From a virus, in IMG/VR virus record IMGVR_UViG_3300003320_000492: a stretch of DNA of 64,000 nt; one strand, 5' to 3'. Below the pieces are notes generated by a model, which made no database searches, was not told the DNA's origin, and saw only the letters and a list, made by a program, of their open reading frames with translations. How positions within the stretch are numbered: position 1 is the first letter of the stretch; each line of letters starts with the position of its first letter. This document shows positions 22,908 through 29,364 of the stretch, one piece after another. The position numbers were made by a program, and so were the translations under genes.

Positions 22908-23013
22908 GAGACACATTAAATGTTACCGGAGTAAACCGGCTGCGGAATCGAACCACATCAATTTGTTTTCTGAGAACAAATTTTATCCTAAAGGATATTG
23001 CTGTAAGTGTCTC
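22908..23013 (-). ncRNA. ACAGCAAT-box cassette 1, carrying a tRNA-like body (CAG anticodon arm, closed mini-acceptor)
   Basis: Minus strand: GAGACAC-TT-ACAGCAAT, hairpin ATCC-TTTA-GGAT, arm TTTGTT-CTCAGAA-AACAAA, T-arm TGTGG-TTCGATT-CCGCA, hairpin GCCGG-TTTACT-CCGGT, ...GTGTCTC. Confidence 0.5.
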
Positions 23014-23016
23014 TAG

Positions 23017-23090
23017 TGGCGGGAGGGGGATTCGAACCCCCGACCTTCGGGTTATGAGCCCGTCGCGCTACCGAACTGCGCCATCCCGCT
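23017..23090 (-). tRNA. tRNA-fMet(CAT): initiator-type tRNA-Met(CAT)
   Basis: Acceptor AGCGGGA/TCCCGCC with a 1:72 mismatch. Three G-C pairs close the anticodon stem. Loop CTCATAA, T-arm GGGGG-TTCGAAT-CCCCC. Confidence 0.8.
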
Positions 23091-23130
23091 GCGCTCTCAT
23101 TGTTTAAAGGACAATGAGAAAACCTTTTAA

Positions 23131-23254
23131 CTAGACACGTCACTTTAAGTGCTCTACCATTGAGCTACGTCCCCAAGAAGTGGGGACGATTGGATTCGAA
23201 CCAATAACCACTCTCTTATCAGGAGAATTGTGAGAATTGCTGTTTGTGTCTAAG
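23131..23254 (-). repeat. ACAGCAAT-box cassette 2 (encloses the permuted tRNA-like gene)
   Basis: 5' arm CTTAGACAC-AA-ACAGCAAT and 3' arm GTGTCTAG. A second helix TCAC/GTGA lies next to the payload. Confidence 0.7.
23150..23227 (-). ncRNA. circularly permuted tRNA-like RNA (Ile-GAU-like; order 27-73, loop, 1-26)
   Basis: TTCTC-CTGATAA-GAGAG, TGGTT, ATTGG-TTCGAAT-CCAAT, CGTCCCC-A-CTTCTT-GGGGACG, TA, GCTC-AATGGTA-GAGC, A. Confidence 0.7.
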
Positions 23255-23323
23255 TGAACCGTGATGGTATCGAACCACCCAAGGATTGTTTTACAGACAC
23301 TCCCGGACCCTGTCCAACGATTC
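23255..23323 (-). tRNA. tRNA-Tyr(GTA): atypical tRNA-Tyr(GTA)-like, 69 nt
   Basis: Acceptor GAATCGT/ACGGTTC, anticodon arm AGTGT-CTGTAAA-ACAAT (one G-A), T-arm GGTGG-TTCGATA-CCATC. Short variable loop and compressed D region. Confidence 0.55.
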
Positions 23324-23330
23324 CTTATTA

Positions 23331-23419
23331 CTAGACCCATTTCTATTCATAGTAGTCTAACCTGCTCTTAGGAGAAAGGTTGAATTCCATTGAATTGAAA
23401 ATTGCTGTCAGGGTCTAAG
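23331..23419 (-). repeat. ACAGCAAT-box cassette 3
   Basis: CTTAGACCC-TG-ACAGCAAT...(63 nt, inner hairpin AACCT...AGGTT)...GGGTCTAG. Sits between tRNA-His and tRNA-Tyr. Confidence 0.7.
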
Positions 23420-23492
23420 GGTGAATGATGGGATTCGAACCCACGAGAATTAGAGCCACAATCTAATTGCTAATGCCTCCGCTTCATCCACC
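23420..23492 (-). tRNA. tRNA-His(GTG): tRNA-His(GTG)
   Basis: Encoded G-1 opposite C73 (GGTGGATG...CATTCACC), anticodon loop TTGTGGC, T-arm GTGGG-TTCGAAT-CCCAT. The D-arm pairs poorly. Confidence 0.7.
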
Positions 23493-23570
23493 ATGCGGAA
23501 TGGTTCAGGTAATCGCGCTACTAATTACTTTGCTACTTGCAACCGATTAGCAAGCCTTACCATTCCTTAG

Positions 23571-23644
23571 TACGAGTAACAGGATTCGAACCTGCAACCT
23601 TTTGGTTCGTAGCCAAATGCTCTCTCCAATTGAGCTATACCCGT
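23571..23644 (-). tRNA. tRNA-Arg(ACG): tRNA-Arg(ACG)
   Basis: Acceptor ACGGGTA/TACTCGT, anticodon loop CTACGAA, T-arm GCAGG-TTCGAAT-CCTGT. Confidence 0.85.
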
Positions 23645-23648
23645 ATGC

Positions 23649-23763
23649 CTAGGCGCATCATGTTTGAAAATCTCGGAATCGAACCGAGTACCTAATGTAC
23701 CAAAAACATTTGCTCTGCCAAGTGAGCTAATTTTCATAAAGAAAAGTTGCTGTTAGCGCCTAA
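23649..23763 (-). repeat. ACAGCAAT-box cassette 4 (encloses tRNA-Gln)
   Basis: ATTAGGCGC-TA-ACAGCAAC...tRNA-Gln...GCGCCTAGG. Starts 11 nt after the stop of CDS 23775..25046. Confidence 0.7.
23664..23736 (-). tRNA. tRNA-Gln(TTG): tRNA-Gln(TTG)
   Basis: Acceptor TGAAAAT/ATTTTCA, D-arm GCTC-ACTTGGCA-GAGC, anticodon loop TTTTGGT, T-arm CTCGG-TTCGATT-CCGAG. Confidence 0.75.
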
Positions 23764-23774
23764 TTGCATGTTAC

Positions 23775-27746: not shown

Positions 27747-27750
27747 GAAA

Positions 27751-27818
27751 CTAGACACGGTTGGTTTCTTATAATCCAGAATATTAGGCAAGAAATAAGA
27801 ATTGCTGTACGTGTCTAA
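27751..27818 (-). repeat. ACAGCAAT-box cassette 6
   Basis: TTTAGACACG-T-ACAGCAAT...(AT-rich, GGATTATAAG)...CGTGTCTAG, then 4 nt and tRNA-Thr. Starts just after the stop of CDS 27828..28769. Confidence 0.7.
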
Positions 27819-27827
27819 AAAGCTTTG

Positions 27828-28769
27828 TTACTTAACAGGTTCTGCGTTTACAATCACACCGCTACTATTTCCCAGCAAACAAAGTCCGGGATTAGTGTGA
27901 CTCTCTTGTGCAATCTGCAAACAATATGTTTGCTTATCCACTTGAGCCTGCTTATTGGTGATATCGTTCTTCAGAGTCTGATTTGTTTTCTGCTGTTCCA
28001 AATTACGGTTCTCTAGAACAAGATTCGCGTATTCTTGAAGTGCCTGGGTAGTCTTGTCATTGTAAACAATTGTCCCGACATATAGATTTCGAATCAAGAA
28101 TTCACTTCCTGATTCTTTTAGCTTTCGATTCAATTCATCCTTATACGGACCCATGTCCGGCGGATTTACCTGTTTTGTAACTGGGTCAACATTTGCTTTT
28201 GCTAAAGGATCATGTGTACGAAACAGTGTTGTTACCAGATTGAGAAGTGTCGGATCAACTCGTCGTGCTTCCCAGTTATCACGATTACGTGCATAATCTT
28301 TGAAATCTTGTGGTGCAGTAGCCGGATTCGGAGCAAACTCAACTGAAACTGGAACCCATGCATCCTGATTACCAGCAATCTTTACGAGTAAGCCCTTACC
28401 ACTATTATCAGATCGGTGATCCCACAATTGGTAATTGGCATCCCATTGCTCAATCTTCAGCCATGGATCAATCCACTTGGCACCAGAACCAGTAACTTCG
28501 CCAGTTGGATTGTGGAATTGAGTTACGATTCCAACATTCCGAACCGGAACAGTATTGAATGAAGCATTGACTGTGAATAATGCCGCAAGAAACAGAAGCA
28601 CTGTGACACTTAGCAGCGGAATTGCCCATCCAAAGGGTTCCGTTACTTTGTCACGATTATAACTGCCTTCTGTAACAACTACCTTGTGTCGTGCAATAAA
28701 TGGACTTGCCAGCAGAATAACTAATGCAATTACTACTAACACAATCGCAAAGATGAATGACTCAGGCAT
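27828..28769 (-). CDS. SPFH/band-7 (stomatin/prohibitin-like) membrane protein
   Basis: N-terminal TM helices, then NVGIVTQFHNPTGEVTGSGAKWIDPWLKIEQWD (SPFH-like core) and a coiled C-terminus. Confidence 0.7.
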   Translation of the reverse strand: MPESFIFAIVLVVIALVILLASPFIARHKVVVTEGSYNRDKVTEPFGWAIPLLSVTVLLFLAALFTVNASFNTVPVRNVGIVTQFHNPTGEVTGSGAKWIDPWLKIEQWDANYQLWDHRSDNSGKGLLVKIAGNQDAWVPVSVEFAPNPATAPQDFKDYARNRDNWEARRVDPTLLNLVTTLFRTHDPLAKANVDPVTKQVNPPDMGPYKDELNRKLKESGSEFLIRNLYVGTIVYNDKTTQALQEYANLVLENRNLEQQKTNQTLKNDITNKQAQVDKQTYCLQIAQESHTNPGLCLLGNSSGVIVNAEPVK

Positions 28770-28797
28770 CCTTTTCCTTTATCGTTTTTATAATGCG

Positions 28798-28873
28798 TAG
28801 AGCAGACGGGGCTCGAACCCGCACAATACCAGATTGAAAGTCTGGTCACTTAGTCCAATTTGTATACTGCTCC
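28798..28873 (-). tRNA. tRNA-Glu(TTC): tRNA-Glu(TTC)
   Basis: Acceptor GGAGCAG/CTGCTCT, anticodon arm CCAGA-CTTTCAA-TCTGG, T-arm GCGGG-TTCGAGC-CCCGT. Large D-loop. Confidence 0.75.
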
Positions 28874-28874
28874 A

Positions 28875-28986
28875 GGTGAAAGGAGTCGGGCTTGTCAGTC
28901 TCCTTTCCCATTACCGACAGATAAGAGATGTATCCGGAATCATCTTATCCGAACTCACGGTGCACACTTCTCCGATGTGAGTCACC
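28875..28986 (-). ncRNA. candidate structured RNA (four-way junction spacer)
   Basis: Closing stem GGTGA/TCACC around three hairpins: ACTCAC/GTGAGT, GATAAGA/TCTTATC and GAAAGGAG/CTCCTTTC. No tRNA loop motifs. Confidence 0.3.
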
Positions 28987-28992
28987 CTTTTG

Positions 28993-29063
28993 CTGCCCAC
29001 CCTGGATTCGAACCAAGAATGAAGGATTCAGAGTCCTTAGTGTTGCCGTTACACTAATGGGCA
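28993..29063 (-). tRNA. tRNA-Gln(CTG): tRNA-Gln(CTG)
   Basis: Acceptor TGCCCAT/GTGGGCA, D-arm GTGT-AACGGCA-ACAC, anticodon arm AAGGA-CTCTGAA-TCCTT, T-arm CTTGG-TTCGAAT-CCAGG. Confidence 0.85.
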
Positions 29064-29215
29064 ATGCGAGAATGGAGATGAAAGGAATAGGAAGCTCTCA
29101 ATTCATTAGTTAGATCGCGCTAGTAGCTCTTGTCCTATTACTCGGTACTAGATCCGCCTCTTGTACTAATGCCATTCTCTGTCCACACTAGATTGCGCTA
29201 CCTAATATGGATTTG

Positions 29216-29300
29216 CGGAAGTGGTAGGATTTGAACCCACGGATCTTTCGATCTCCGGTTTTCAAGACCGGTGCACTAAACCAGACTATGCGACACTTCC
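29216..29300 (-). tRNA. tRNA-Ser(TGA): tRNA-Ser(TGA), type II
   Basis: Acceptor GGAAGTG/CACTTCC, anticodon arm CCGGT-CTTGAAA-ACCGG, long variable arm GGAGATCGAAAGATCC, T-arm GTGGG-TTCAAAT-CCTAC. Confidence 0.85.
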
Positions 29301-29304
29301 ATTA

Positions 29305-29364
29305 CTAGGCACATTACTTTATAATCTGCGAAATGATTTAGTAGTAATTGCTGTTCGTGCCTAA
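29305..29364 (-). repeat. ACAGCAAT-box cassette 7
   Basis: TTTAGGCAC-GA-ACAGCAAT...(AT-rich, AGATTATAAAG)...GTGCCTAG, then 4 nt and tRNA-Ser. Confidence 0.7.

Follow-up and report, generated by a model that had tools for sequence, protein, structure and literature searches.

YrlA and YrlB, the Y RNAs of Salmonella and M. smegmatis (RF02553; Chen et al. 2014, PMC4201824), are encoded a few kb from the gene of a Ro60 orthologue and on its strand. Each genome has several: one is a permuted tRNA-like molecule (T-arm, closed acceptor, D-arm), others are simple hairpins, and the termini are paired, with a short conserved motif on the 5' strand, close to the 5' end. Seven inverted-repeat cassettes found in a 64 kb stretch of phage DNA (hereafter the window) resemble YrlA and YrlB in these features. 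They differ in their motif, which is ACAGCAA, not GNCGAAN0-1G, and follows the closing stem instead of being part of it. The modules score only 36–50 bits against RF02553, whose gathering score is 69, and their presumed partner is a DUF2828/DUF7788 protein outside Pfam TROVE. A locus can have as many as seven copies, which in the window phage are interleaved with tRNAs.

In Deinococcus radiodurans, Yrn2 is part of a polycistronic precursor with tRNA-Asp and Yrn1; the cassettes would likewise be made together with tRNAs. The tRNA-like arms of Yrn1 have the opposite orientation to those of YrlA, as do those of the unpermuted Cassette 4 compared with Cassette 6. However, Yrn1 and Yrn2 have another Ro-binding sequence, and the tethering of Rsr to PNPase is experimental in that system, whereas the cassettes are known from sequence.

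The Ro60 of Thermus phage phiLo binds two upstream Y-like RNAs and the host PNPase (PMC12135203). As in the window, the Ro60 homologue is phage-encoded and Y-like RNAs (Yrl1 and Yrl2) adjoin its gene; phiLo Ro60 (9kop/9l5y) is also among the structural neighbours found for the window protein. Unlike the cassettes, the phiLo RNAs were picked by the canonical CGAA motif, their partner is a recognisable TROVE protein, and they lie outside a tRNA array. The gp130 protein of Bas63 is Ro60-like and counters Ppl, and its authors guessed that unidentified Y RNAs reside within the tRNA region (PMC11482910). In metazoan Y RNAs and nematode sbRNAs, the 5' and 3' ends form a terminal stem with the Ro60 site, read mainly on its 5' strand, and a variable upper module serves other factors. 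The cassettes would share this layout, but the Pol III transcription, U-tail, La binding and GGUCCGA bulged helix of metazoan Y RNAs do not apply to them.

The Ro60-like protein and the seven cassettes

The product of the gene at 25280–26755 matches PHROG 850 (E = 1e-145), and a sequence search against the PDB gives no match. In a Foldseek comparison of its AlphaFold model (pLDDT 88.5, pTM 0.89) with the PDB, the top 12 matches, which all extend over the full length, are Ro60, Rsr or phage phiLo Ro60 (E = 2e-8 to 6e-6), with an identity of only 11–14%. A MIDAS-type DxSxS motif, ADTSGSM (D296/S298/S300), is invariant in the homologue alignment A1. By predicted fold only, the protein is a structural homologue of Ro60. 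The preliminary description had called the gene Ro/TROVE: the first half of this label stands, the second does not, as Pfam gives DUF2828 and DUF7788. The protein is the presumed partner of the cassettes.

Table 1. Ro60-like gene and cassettes of the window (R1, covariance model; z, folding z-score).
Feature	Position	Strand	Description	5' arm	Box	3' arm	Downstream
Ro60-like protein gene	25280..26755	-	491 aa; Pfam DUF2828 + DUF7788/vWA; PHROG 850 'RNA-binding protein'				
Cassette 1	29305..29364	-	60 nt, short hairpin type; R1 52.2 bits, E = 8e-10; z = -3.2	UUAGGCACG 29364-29356	ACAGCAAU 29354-29347	UGUGCCUAG 29313-29305	tRNA-Ser start 29300, 4 nt on
Cassette 2	27751..27818	-	68 nt, short hairpin type; R1 55.5 bits; z = -3.4	27818-27810	27808-27801	CGUGUCUAG 27759-27751	tRNA-Thr start 27746, 4 nt on
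Cassette 3	27190..27255	-	66 nt, short hairpin type; R1 47.2 bits; z = -3.9	UUAGGCGC 27255-27248	27245-27238	GCGCCUAG 27197-27190	tRNA-Pro start 27185, 4 nt on
Cassette 4	23649..23763	-	115 nt; untrained, R1 E = 2e-4	23763-23756	ACAGCAAC 23753-23746	23656-23649	tRNA-Arg start 23644, 4 nt on
Cassette 5	23331..23418	-	88 nt, long irregular hairpin; untrained, R1 E = 9e-5; z = -2.4	23418-23411, one C past tRNA-His	23408-23401	23338-23331	tRNA-Tyr start 23323, 7 nt on
Cassette 6	23131..23253	-	123 nt, YrlA-type; R1 E = 7e-4; z = -3.4	23253-23246, one nt past tRNA-Tyr	23243-23236	23138-23131	hairpin, then tRNA-fMet, 40 nt from 3' arm
Cassette 7	22908..23013	-	106 nt, partial tRNA-like body; R1 E = 1e-4; z = -4.4	GAGACAC 23013-23007	23004-22997	GUGUCUC 22914-22908	tRNA-Phe start 22902, 5 nt on

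The copies and arm pairs of the preliminary description are recovered by a script and by a covariance model: seven cassettes in the 64 kb, all on the minus strand, which is that of the Ro60-like gene (Table 1). The string TTAGN6ACAGCAA has six exact matches in the window, every one on this strand. The seventh copy (Cassette 7) deviates from the motif (GAGACAC..GTGTCTC) and has neither TTAG nor CTAG. ACAGCAAY occurs 11 times in the window, compared to 4.8 ± 2.0 in shuffled sequences.

The model, R1, was trained on 16 short modules (3 from the window, the remainder from related contigs). Its matches on both strands of the window are the seven cassettes alone; the four held out of training are found with E = 9e-5 to 7e-4, and the next-best match (E = 1.6) is on the reverse strand of one cassette locus. 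R1 finds no copy in the remaining ~20 kb of the tRNA array, which bears out the reported confinement to about 2.6 kb around the gene. The terminal stem is part of the minimum-free-energy structure of all seven cassettes (z-scores of -2.4 to -4.4). An eighth candidate with a stem and ACAGCAAT, at 21197-21106, is not recognised by R1 and lies inside a coiled-coil ORF; it is probably a chance occurrence.

Closing stem, box and payloads

The module consists of a closing stem of 7–9 bp (consensus WAGRCNC/GNGYCUW) and an ACAGCAA(Y) box, which begins 0–3 nt after the 5' arm, on the 5' strand, and which most predicted folds leave unpaired. In the stem alignment, 93% of the cells are paired (26–55% in slid controls) and all 8 pairs have compensatory changes, in which both sides change; there are 89 compensatory cells, compared to 25 ± 4 in shuffles. 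G-U pairs are tolerated, and the arms covary without being identical. For example, the orthologues of Cassette 7 in the related loci L001 (8646-8747) and L002 (5861-5968) have a compensatory change to GAGACGC/GCGUCUC. Taken site by site, shuffle tests of the stem give only weak p-values (about 0.02–0.1). The covariation strongly supports the earlier proposal that the arms are a selected RNA helix, not a protein-binding palindrome.

For the family as a whole, the statistics do not support a general second helix above the box (mean of 4.7 bp, compared to 4.1 bp in shuffles). In Cassette 1, the stem and a second helix, AUUACU/AGUAAU, are both in the minimum-free-energy structure. That of Cassette 2 is UUCUUAU/AUAAGAA, which its orthologue (L002 1594-1661) replaces with UUUUCU/AGAAAA, and that of Cassette 3 is 9 bp long (p = 0.002 compared to shuffles).

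The payload of Cassette 6, described earlier as a permuted tRNA-like gene, is a YrlA-type domain: it comprises a hairpin (loop of 7 nt), a T-arm (GGUUCGAAUCC), an acceptor-like hairpin, which is closed, and a D-arm (AGCUCAAUGGUAGAGC). It matches the full RF02553 model with 39 bits (E = 2e-5; gathering score 69), and in this alignment the box occupies the model's GNCGAA position. The orthologues score 50.3 bits (L002 5336-5460) and 37.7 bits (L001 8319-8442). A YrlA-type domain (T-arm, closed acceptor, D-arm) occurs in one module each in several of the multi-module phages, namely the window, L001, L002, FelixO1/Bas63, PJN02 and phiN3. Cassette 7 has four hairpins, including one with a 7-nt loop and a T-arm (GUGGUUCGAUUCCGC), and lacks a D-arm. 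Cassette 4 contains a complete cloverleaf (23736-23664), called as tRNA-Gln(UUG), with 59.8 bits against the Rfam tRNA model. It had been described as a normal tRNA-Gln. It is probably a tRNA mimic: its acceptor stem is all A/U and the anticodon of the orthologous payload is read as AUG in L001 (UUG in L002).

Six 3' arms end 4–7 nt from the 5' end of a canonical tRNA, and that of Cassette 6 is followed by a hairpin and, 40 nt away, tRNA-fMet. The 5' arms at 23418, 23253 and 23013/23016 begin one C past a tRNA discriminator base. L001, L002 and Bacillus phage PJN02 have the same close spacing, and the cassettes keep their positions relative to the same tRNAs in the window, L001 and L002. Other inter-tRNA spacers of the array also fold stably (e.g., 23566-23497, z = -3.6).

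The module in other phages and in bacteria

The stem-box module is present beside homologous genes in Listeria phages A511/CKA15, FelixO1/Bas63, Staphylococcus phage SEP9, Bacillus phage PJN02, Enterococcus phage H1, mycobacteriophage LeBron and others. In 17 phage loci, all 48 model matches (E ≤ 0.1) share the strand of the DUF2828-type gene. The same is true of 142/142 matches (E ≤ 0.01) in 80 bacterial or MAG loci, 63 of which have at least one such match. Independently of any model, ACAGCAA is found in these 80 loci 275 times on the gene strand and 55 times on the opposite strand (about 44 and 32 expected); for boxes that adjoin a closing stem with 7 or more Watson-Crick pairs, the counts are 194 and 7. 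The complete SEP9 genome (92 kb) has only three matches to model R2, and these follow directly on its DUF2828 gene.

Modules occur with no tRNAs nearby in LeBron, L004, L005, SEP9 and the Listeria phages. They are in tandem beside the gene, not directly before tRNAs, in A511/CKA15, SEP9, LeBron, L003-L005 and most of the 80 loci. The tRNA region of Bas63 has modules at L026 5381-5440 and 5923-6050. In Campylobacter and Sinorhizobium phage phiN3, a script finds the stem and ACAGCAA, but the covariance models do not recover these modules; the only model match in phiN3 is a short candidate (L023 3896-3930, E about 0.5–0.8). The RNAs named as hyper-abundant in the CKA15 transcriptome paper come from CKA15_059-061, and the three ACAGCAA modules of this phage lie about 1 kb downstream of them; the paper mentions two further highly transcribed unannotated regions, without coordinates.

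Judged by sequence comparison, the putative pairing of a stem-ACAGCAA RNA with a DUF2828-type Ro60 homologue recurs across many unrelated phages. No description of it was found in Rfam 15 and the literature searched.

Probable Y-like RNAs and the alternatives

The seven cassettes are probably (about 80%) Y-RNA-like non-coding RNAs, the partners of the phage Ro60-like protein, and the modules are best read as a candidate variant class of Y RNA that would partner DUF2828-type Ro60 homologues. This reading, one of those first suggested, is favoured because the module accompanies the Ro-like gene, on its strand, in many unrelated phages, both with and without tRNAs in the vicinity; the RNAs would be expressed and bind the protein. 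The paired ends (5'-WAGRCNC / GNGYCUW-3') form the closing stem, and the ACAGCAA(Y) box lies where canonical Y RNAs carry GGUCCGA or GNCGAAN0-1G, on the strand contacted by Ro60. Stem and box would form a protein-docking module, and the variable payload an effector or adaptor module. Among the payloads are one permuted tRNA mimic of YrlA type, one D-arm-less relative, one cloverleaf mimic and four simple YrlB-like hairpins. Several observations count against a Y RNA: the box differs from the canonical GNCGAA and GGUCCGA, the YrlA match is far below the gathering score (39 and 69), and the protein is outside Pfam TROVE, with 11–14% identity to Ro60 structures. The weak per-site tests, the lack of a general second helix, the modules of Campylobacter and phiN3 that the models miss and the map positions of the abundant CKA15 RNAs also count against it.

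The modules could instead be cis-acting leader elements of pre-tRNAs, discarded after RNase P cleavage, which would bring the Ro-like protein, or some other factor, to nascent pre-tRNAs for chaperoning, quality control or the timing of maturation. The spacing of 4–7 nt before the tRNA in six of the seven cassettes, equally tight in L001, L002 and PJN02, is consistent with this idea, and Ro60 binds misfolded precursors of non-coding RNAs (PMC4201824). It is nevertheless unlikely, considering the tandem modules that lie beside the gene and not before tRNAs in most loci, and the elaborate conserved YrlA-type tRNA mimics, which a throw-away leader would not need. It is even less probable that the modules serve the tRNA operon as processing or insulator stems (for RNase III, RNase E or a phage nuclease) and are unrelated to the Ro-like protein. 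The arms do bracket inter-tRNA segments, and other spacers, such as 23566-23497, form stable hairpins. However, RNase III generally needs a longer stem than 7–9 bp, a double-strand-specific nuclease gives no reason to expect a single-stranded ACAGCAA box that is invariant, and the other roughly 20 kb of the tRNA array has no copy. Across at least 80 loci it is the DUF2828 gene that the module accompanies, not tRNAs, and strand concordance is complete. The RNase III leader-trailer stems first envisaged are disfavoured by arms of only 8–9 bp and by modules at loci without tRNAs.

The inverted repeats, conserved box and heterogeneous payloads, four of which have TATAAT-like hexamers, also recall DNA-level elements: small mobile elements, cassette-shuffling recombination signals, or operator or promoter sites. 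This is the least credible alternative, and a very improbable one. The copies are strictly oriented with respect to the gene, whereas a DNA palindrome has strand symmetry; their arms covary, tolerating G-U pairs, instead of being identical; and the positions relative to the same tRNAs are unchanged in the window, L001 and L002, all of which argues against the suggested recombination signal. Promoter-like sites are not enriched (11, for 12.3 expected). Two lie inside cassettes, at chance level (23721-23694, in the cloverleaf, and 23007-22980, in Cassette 7), and the TATAAT-like hexamers in the four short cassettes coincide with no such site. These hexamers have no matching -35 element and are not a conserved feature of the orthologous ones, which speaks against reading them as promoters.

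As Y-like RNAs, the cassette RNAs would be transcribed within the tRNA array and probably released by tRNA-processing enzymes. Cleavage by RNase P at the 5' end of the downstream tRNA would leave a 3' tail of 4–7 nt, and maturation of the 3' end of the upstream tRNA would place the other cut 1 nt ahead of the stem. By analogy with Rsr/Y RNA/PNPase and phage phiLo Ro60, and considering the anti-Ppl phenotype of the Bas63 homologue gp130, the RNP may gate the Ro ring or tether it to host RNA-decay or RNA-repair factors, or it may act in counter-defence.

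Anatomy and covariation of the cassettes

The seven cassettes lie within 2.6 kb of the Ro-like gene and on its strand (table below). Each consists, on the minus strand, of a 5' arm, 1-2 nt, the box ACAGCAA(U/C), a payload of 33-97 nt and a complementary 3' arm; a script finds this same anatomy, including the short distance between arm and box that the preliminary description had given for all seven. The extended form UUAG-RCNC ... GNGY-CUAG, whose helix has 8-9 bp including a terminal U-G, is present in six of the seven, and cassette 7 has the arms GAGACAC/GUGUCUC in its place. 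The window contains six exact matches to TTAGN6ACAGCAA, all on the minus strand, and 11 copies of ACAGCAAY compared to 4.8 +/- 2.0 in shuffled sequences. The terminal stem is part of the minimum-free-energy structure of every cassette (z = -2.4 to -4.4), and the box is predicted to be unpaired in six folds and partly paired in that of cassette 6. The reported proximity to tRNAs also holds: the 3' arm is 4-7 nt from the 5' end of the next tRNA in six of the seven cassettes, and the same three 5' arms start one C past a tRNA discriminator.

Positions of the cassettes and of the other features discussed (window coordinates, unless a locus of a relative is named)
Feature	Position	Strand	Description
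Cassette 1	29364-29305	-	Hairpin
Cassette 2	27818-27751	-	Hairpin
Cassette 3	27255-27190	-	Hairpin
Cassette 4	23763-23649	-	Cloverleaf payload, 23664-23736
Cassette 5	23418-23331	-	Hairpin
Cassette 6	23253-23131	-	Permuted tRNA-like payload; RF02553 match 23120-23231
Cassette 7	23013-22908	-	7-nt-loop hairpin, T-arm and closed hairpin, without D-arm
Ro-like gene	25280-26755	-	DUF2828 + DUF7788
tRNA-Gln(UUG)	27499-27571		Duplicated by the cassette 4 payload
Box-less spacer	23497-23566	-	70 nt, ends GGAAUGGU/ACCAUUCC, z = -3.6
Box-less spacer	29372-29510	-	139 nt, ends GAUGAAUG/CAUUCAUC, z = -1.6
Script candidate	21197-21106		Inside a coiled-coil ORF
Rfam tRNA match	43651-43723	-	33.5 bits, above gathering score
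Polynucleobacter-1 match	22951-23086	-	31.1 bits, gathering score 37
Inverted repeat	25224-25266		Perfect, 14 bp, AAGGCTTTGCTAGA/TCTAGCAAAGCCTT, 15-nt loop
Small ORF	25036-25314		Overlaps the inverted repeat
433-aa ORF	23775-25076	-	Just downstream of the Ro-like gene
L001 (viral contig)	7831-7903		Payload orthologous to that of cassette 4
Bas63 (L026, MZ501086.1)	5923-6050		YrlA-like module
CKA15 (L016, OR088597.1)	4012-4276		Three modules
CKA15 (L016, OR088597.1)	2867-3177		CKA15_059-061
PJN02 (L022)	5560-7305		Gene after the DUF2828 gene

A covariance model of the module (closing stem and box), R1, was trained on 16 short modules (alignment A3), three from the window and 13 from related viral contigs. 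Searched over both strands of the full 64 kb, R1 returns exactly the seven cassettes, including the four with long payloads, which were outside the training set (E = 9e-5 to 7e-4), and the next-best match, at E = 1.6, is the reverse strand of a true cassette. The remaining ~20 kb of the tRNA array therefore has no cassette, and both the count of seven and the confinement to the neighbourhood of the gene stand as first described, with no copy elsewhere in the window. An eighth copy proposed by the script is unrecognised by R1 and was treated as chance.

Other structured elements occur in the array. Two inter-tRNA spacers without an ACAGCAA box fold as end-to-end hairpins and may represent a second kind of structured spacer. 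An Rfam tRNA match which ARAGORN does not call may be a degenerate or unusual tRNA. A sub-threshold match to the Polynucleobacter-1 RNA takes in tRNA-fMet as well as the first hairpins in cassette 7, and is probably driven by the tRNA part.

The arms had been described as a covarying, selected RNA helix. In a 48-sequence alignment, 93% of the stem cells are standard pairs, and 96% are paired in A3, which was produced by MAFFT only; these figures lean towards the structure because alignment A4 was fitted to the structure of the model and the arms in A3 were picked by complementarity. All eight stem pairs of the 48-sequence alignment change on both sides, compensatory cells number 89 compared to 25 +/- 4 in column shuffles, and pairing falls to 26-55% when the partner is slid by 1-3 columns. 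The strand and linkage statistics are free of alignment bias, and so are the compensatory differences between cassettes found at the same position in relatives: GAGACAC/GUGUCUC versus GAGACGC/GCGUCUC, and UUAGGCGC/GCGCCUAG versus UUAGGCAC/GUGCCUAG. The closing helix is selected. Within it, positions 2-3 (A-U and G-C) and 7 (C-G) hardly vary (consensus WAGRCNC/GNGYCUW), which suggests that the stem as well as the box is read sequence-specifically.

A per-site test, in which the 14 nt upstream of each ACAGCAA were shuffled, gives p ~0.003-0.2 for true modules; these values are individually weak because a search space of 125 nt in AT-rich sequence readily yields 7-bp stems. It was replaced by the covariance models, the strand-concordance counts and a count restricted to Watson-Crick pairs. 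Some window cassettes have a clear second helix above the box (e.g., cassette 3, p = 0.002), but over 39 short modules such a helix does not reach significance, and it was rejected as a general feature of the family.

The Ro-like gene and its linkage to the modules

The 491-aa product of the Ro-like gene matches Pfam DUF2828 and DUF7788 (vWA-like) and belongs to PHROGs family 850, "RNA-binding protein". It has no match to Pfam TROVE, and phmmer finds no match in the PDB. The AlphaFold2 model, based on a 50-sequence alignment, has a pLDDT of 88.5 and a pTM of 0.89. The 12 best Foldseek matches to this model in the PDB are all Ro60, over the full length (E = 2e-8 to 6e-6, TM 0.42-0.61); they include the proteins from Xenopus (1yvr/1yvp/2i91) and human (9nen/9nf8), Rsr from D. 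radiodurans (2nvo) and the protein of Thermus phage phiLo (9kop/9l5y). Only isolated vWA domains rank below them. The DxSxS MIDAS motif is invariant in the alignment of Ro-like proteins. The confident model, the Ro60-only full-length matches and the invariant MIDAS indicate that the protein, at the level of its predicted fold, is a divergent structural homologue of Ro60. This relationship is visible by fold comparison alone, since the sequence search of the PDB gave nothing. The "Ro/TROVE" label of the preliminary description is therefore right in substance, but the Pfam assignment is DUF2828 + DUF7788 and not TROVE.

Homologues are encoded in 711 phage records from many genera (tblastn, INPHARED phage collection), among them FelixO1-like, A511/P100-like, T4-like Vibrio and Aeromonas, Campylobacter and staphylococcal phages and mycobacteriophages, and more than 528 stretches of the genome collection encode a relative. 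Virulent phages commonly carry genes for DUF2828-type proteins as accessory genes. Among the homologues, one acts against a defence system (PMC11482910), one is present in virions (PMC12282133), and over-expression of another is toxic (PMC13148394). The window itself carries genes for terminase, DNA polymerase, ribonucleotide reductase and endolysin, and a GenBank search for a near-identical phage returned tRNA matches only.

Several features adjoin the gene. Directly downstream of its stop codon lies a perfect inverted repeat without a T-run, which may be a processing or stability hairpin. The 433-aa ORF that follows is without a Pfam or PHROG match; it contains a linker rich in Pro and Thr, and to the eye its sequence resembles a beta-helix repeat. 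In the annotation of Bacillus phage PJN02, the DUF2828 gene is followed by one for a right-handed parallel beta-helix protein, and a beta-helix-like protein may be a recurring neighbour. Genes of the RNA-repair type recur in other phages, either close to the Ro-like gene or elsewhere in its genome: CKA15 has a tRNA splicing ligase (CKA15_050), Enterococcus phage H1 (L021) both a protein with a cyclic-phosphate processing domain and a phosphoesterase, phiN3 (L023) an Appr-1-p processing protein, and LeBron (L015; PMC13148394) an RNA ligase and PNK. None is found among the 10 ORFs neighbouring the gene in the window.

The modules were sought in diverse phages and viral contigs, as the preliminary description had advised, and they adjoin the Ro-like gene, on its strand, throughout the following set. 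Listeria phages A511 and CKA15 have a tandem of three modules, which lies between the gene and a TTGACA-N17-TATCAT promoter; between tRNAs, FelixO1 has four and E. coli phage Bas63 has two, the latter found by the model at L026 5381-5440 and 5923-6050. Staphylococcus phage SEP9 has three modules, PJN02 five or six, and Enterococcus phage H1 and mycobacteriophage LeBron two each; modules are also present in Synechococcus phage B3, Sinorhizobium phage phiN3 and Campylobacter CP8-like phages. The models do not recover the Campylobacter modules or those of phiN3 with long stems, where box and stem are present and the stem sequence differs. In 225 kb of phage loci, 48 of 48 R1 matches (E <= 0.1) are on the gene strand, and in the complete 92 kb SEP9 genome the broader model, R2, gives three matches only, all immediately after the DUF2828 gene. 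A model search of 80 bacterial-genome or MAG loci (573 kb, E <= 0.01) gives 142 matches out of 142 on the gene strand, with at least one match in 63 loci. Counted in these 80 loci without any model, ACAGCAA occurs 275 times on the gene strand versus 55 times on the other (~44 and ~32 are expected from composition), and the copies that have a closing stem of 7 or more Watson-Crick pairs next to them number 194 versus 7. Altogether, roughly 200 modules were found. Modules also occur where no tRNAs are nearby, in LeBron, SEP9 and the loci L004 and L005; the linkage of the module is therefore with the gene rather than with tRNA arrays as such.

In Bas63, two small CDSs annotated on the opposite strand, bas63_0137 and bas63_0138, overlap the YrlA-like module and are probably annotation errors. 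In CKA15, the hyper-abundant RNAs CKA15_059-061, reported as ~67% of phage transcripts, come from a region without an ACAGCAA box, ~1 kb upstream of the three modules; it is a separate region of abundant ncRNA adjoining the same Ro-like gene. The published transcriptome mentions two further highly transcribed unannotated regions without coordinates. The Ro-like protein of this phage, CKA15_055, has been detected in virions.

Payloads and their resemblance to YrlA

The payload of cassette 6 had been described as a permuted tRNA-like gene, and comparison with the Rfam YrlA family (RF02553) bears this out. The cassette aligns to the full model (positions 1-114) with 39 bits (E = 2e-5), and its T-arm, closed acceptor-like hairpin and D-arm follow one another in the permuted order typical of the tRNA-like domain of YrlA. 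The YrlA-type elements are GGUUCGAAUCC, GUCCCCA/UGGGGAC and AGCUCAAUGGUAGAGC, and the ACAGCAAU box aligns with GgCGAAUG of the model. Equivalent modules in L002, L001 and the unrelated phage phiN3 score 36-50 bits (50.3, 37.7 and 35.9, respectively), and a YrlA-type domain is seen by eye in FelixO1, Bas63 and PJN02. The score of the window cassette remains below the gathering threshold of 69 bits; because of this sub-threshold score and of the non-canonical box, the cassette is not a member of RF02553 in the strict sense. For the short cassettes, a search of Rfam 15 gives no match to any family at E <= 1. The analysis offers an explanation of why annotation based on Rfam overlooks these RNAs.

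The payload of cassette 4, first taken for a normal tRNA-Gln, is a complete cloverleaf, which ARAGORN and Rfam call tRNA-Gln(UUG) (59.8 bits, gathering score 29). So far the earlier reading stands, but the acceptor stem consists entirely of A/U, the array has another tRNA-Gln(UUG), and in L001 the orthologous payload reads the anticodon AUG, which is not known as a natural His anticodon. The payload probably mimics a tRNA and does not decode, and so inflates the tRNA count of the phage. Caution is needed in annotation: this tRNA call and some small CDSs in phage tRNA arrays, such as the two in Bas63, probably cover such RNAs.

Alternative readings and the Y RNA interpretation

Three other roles were considered for the cassettes. 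A leader-trailer stem processed by RNase III needs roughly at least 20 bp of continuous or nearly continuous duplex; the closing stem has 7-9 bp, and the coaxial second helix that might extend it is not general; this reading is not supported. The TATAAT-like hexamers that end four AT-rich payloads recall sigma-70 promoters, for which a -35/-10 pair at 16-18 nt spacing, conserved in relatives, would be expected. A reading as promoters and terminators was rejected: a scan calls no promoter-like site within the four short cassettes, and the region as a whole is not enriched in such sites. The orthologues in L001 and L002 lack these hexamers, which in cassettes 2 and 3 simply form one strand, the 3' one, of the AU-rich second helix. 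Near-identical terminal repeats, a placement neutral to strand and variable sites of insertion would be expected of an inverted-repeat mobile element or of a cassette-shuffling recombination signal. The arms, however, differ from one another and covary, their strand polarity is strict, and their placement relative to the same tRNAs is common to the window, L001 and L002, all of which argues against both.

Y RNAs lie close to the gene of a Ro60 orthologue, on its strand, as do all seven cassettes and, elsewhere, 48 of 48 and 142 of 142 model matches. Their ends pair into a stem, on which the Ro site lies, and here 93-96% of the stem cells are paired and the stem is present in all seven minimum-free-energy structures. 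Chen et al. describe that bacteria encode two or more Y RNAs close to the Ro gene, on its strand, of which one includes a tRNA-like module and another is a simple hairpin, and that a short sequence motif close to the 5' end, GNCGAAN0-1G, is related to the animal motif GGUCCGA, which Xenopus Ro60 contacts mainly on the 5' strand (PMC4201824). The cassettes resemble these RNAs in their number near the gene, their strand, their tRNA-like and hairpin kinds and their 5' motif. They differ in the motif itself: neither GGUCCGA nor GNCGAAN0-1G is present in the 5' strand, and the invariant ACAGCAA(Y) occupies the equivalent RF02553 position. A Y RNA of D. radiodurans is co-transcribed with a tRNA (PMC4201824), much as the cassettes are interleaved with tRNAs. 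Compared to known Ro60-Y RNA systems, the protein family is divergent, the box is different, the copies are unusually many and they are partly interleaved with tRNAs. This points to a second, divergent "code" of Ro60-Y RNA recognition.

A wide reading, to which we give a probability of about 0.6, is that the stem and ACAGCAA RNAs are a hitherto unrecognised and very widespread class of Y RNAs, the long-missing partners of the DUF2828/PHROG-850 Ro60-like proteins (711 INPHARED phage records and hundreds of prophage or MAG loci), whose interchangeable payloads, tRNA mimics or hairpins, would programme the ring towards different host targets in RNA decay, RNA repair or defence. The Ro-like ring would dock on stem and box, with the payloads acting as adaptor modules. 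In the window phage, RNase P would excise the RNAs from the tRNA precursor, leaving a 3' tail of 4-7 nt, and the 3' processing of the upstream tRNA would cut the other end. By analogy, the function could be the tethering or gating of a host exoribonuclease or of repair factors, or counter-defence: the complexes Rsr-Y RNA-PNPase and phiLo Ro60-Yrl-PNPase (PMC12135203) are models for tethering, and Bas63 gp130, which acts against Ppl (PMC11482910), is a model for counter-defence.

In the literature searched, we found nothing on DUF2828 in phages, no description of stem and ACAGCAA RNAs and no RNA partner identified for DUF2828-type proteins; two recent papers (one is PMC11482910) guess that Y RNAs for these proteins exist among tRNA genes, without identifying them. 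The closing stem WAGRCNC/GNGYCUW with the ACAGCAA box supplies a searchable RNA signature, and the exact coordinates of the modules in the model phages Bas63, FelixO1, A511/CKA15, SEP9 and LeBron make the RNP directly testable. If the Y RNA reading is true, programming of the Ro-like ring by the payloads would explain the counter-defence phenotype of Bas63 gp130.
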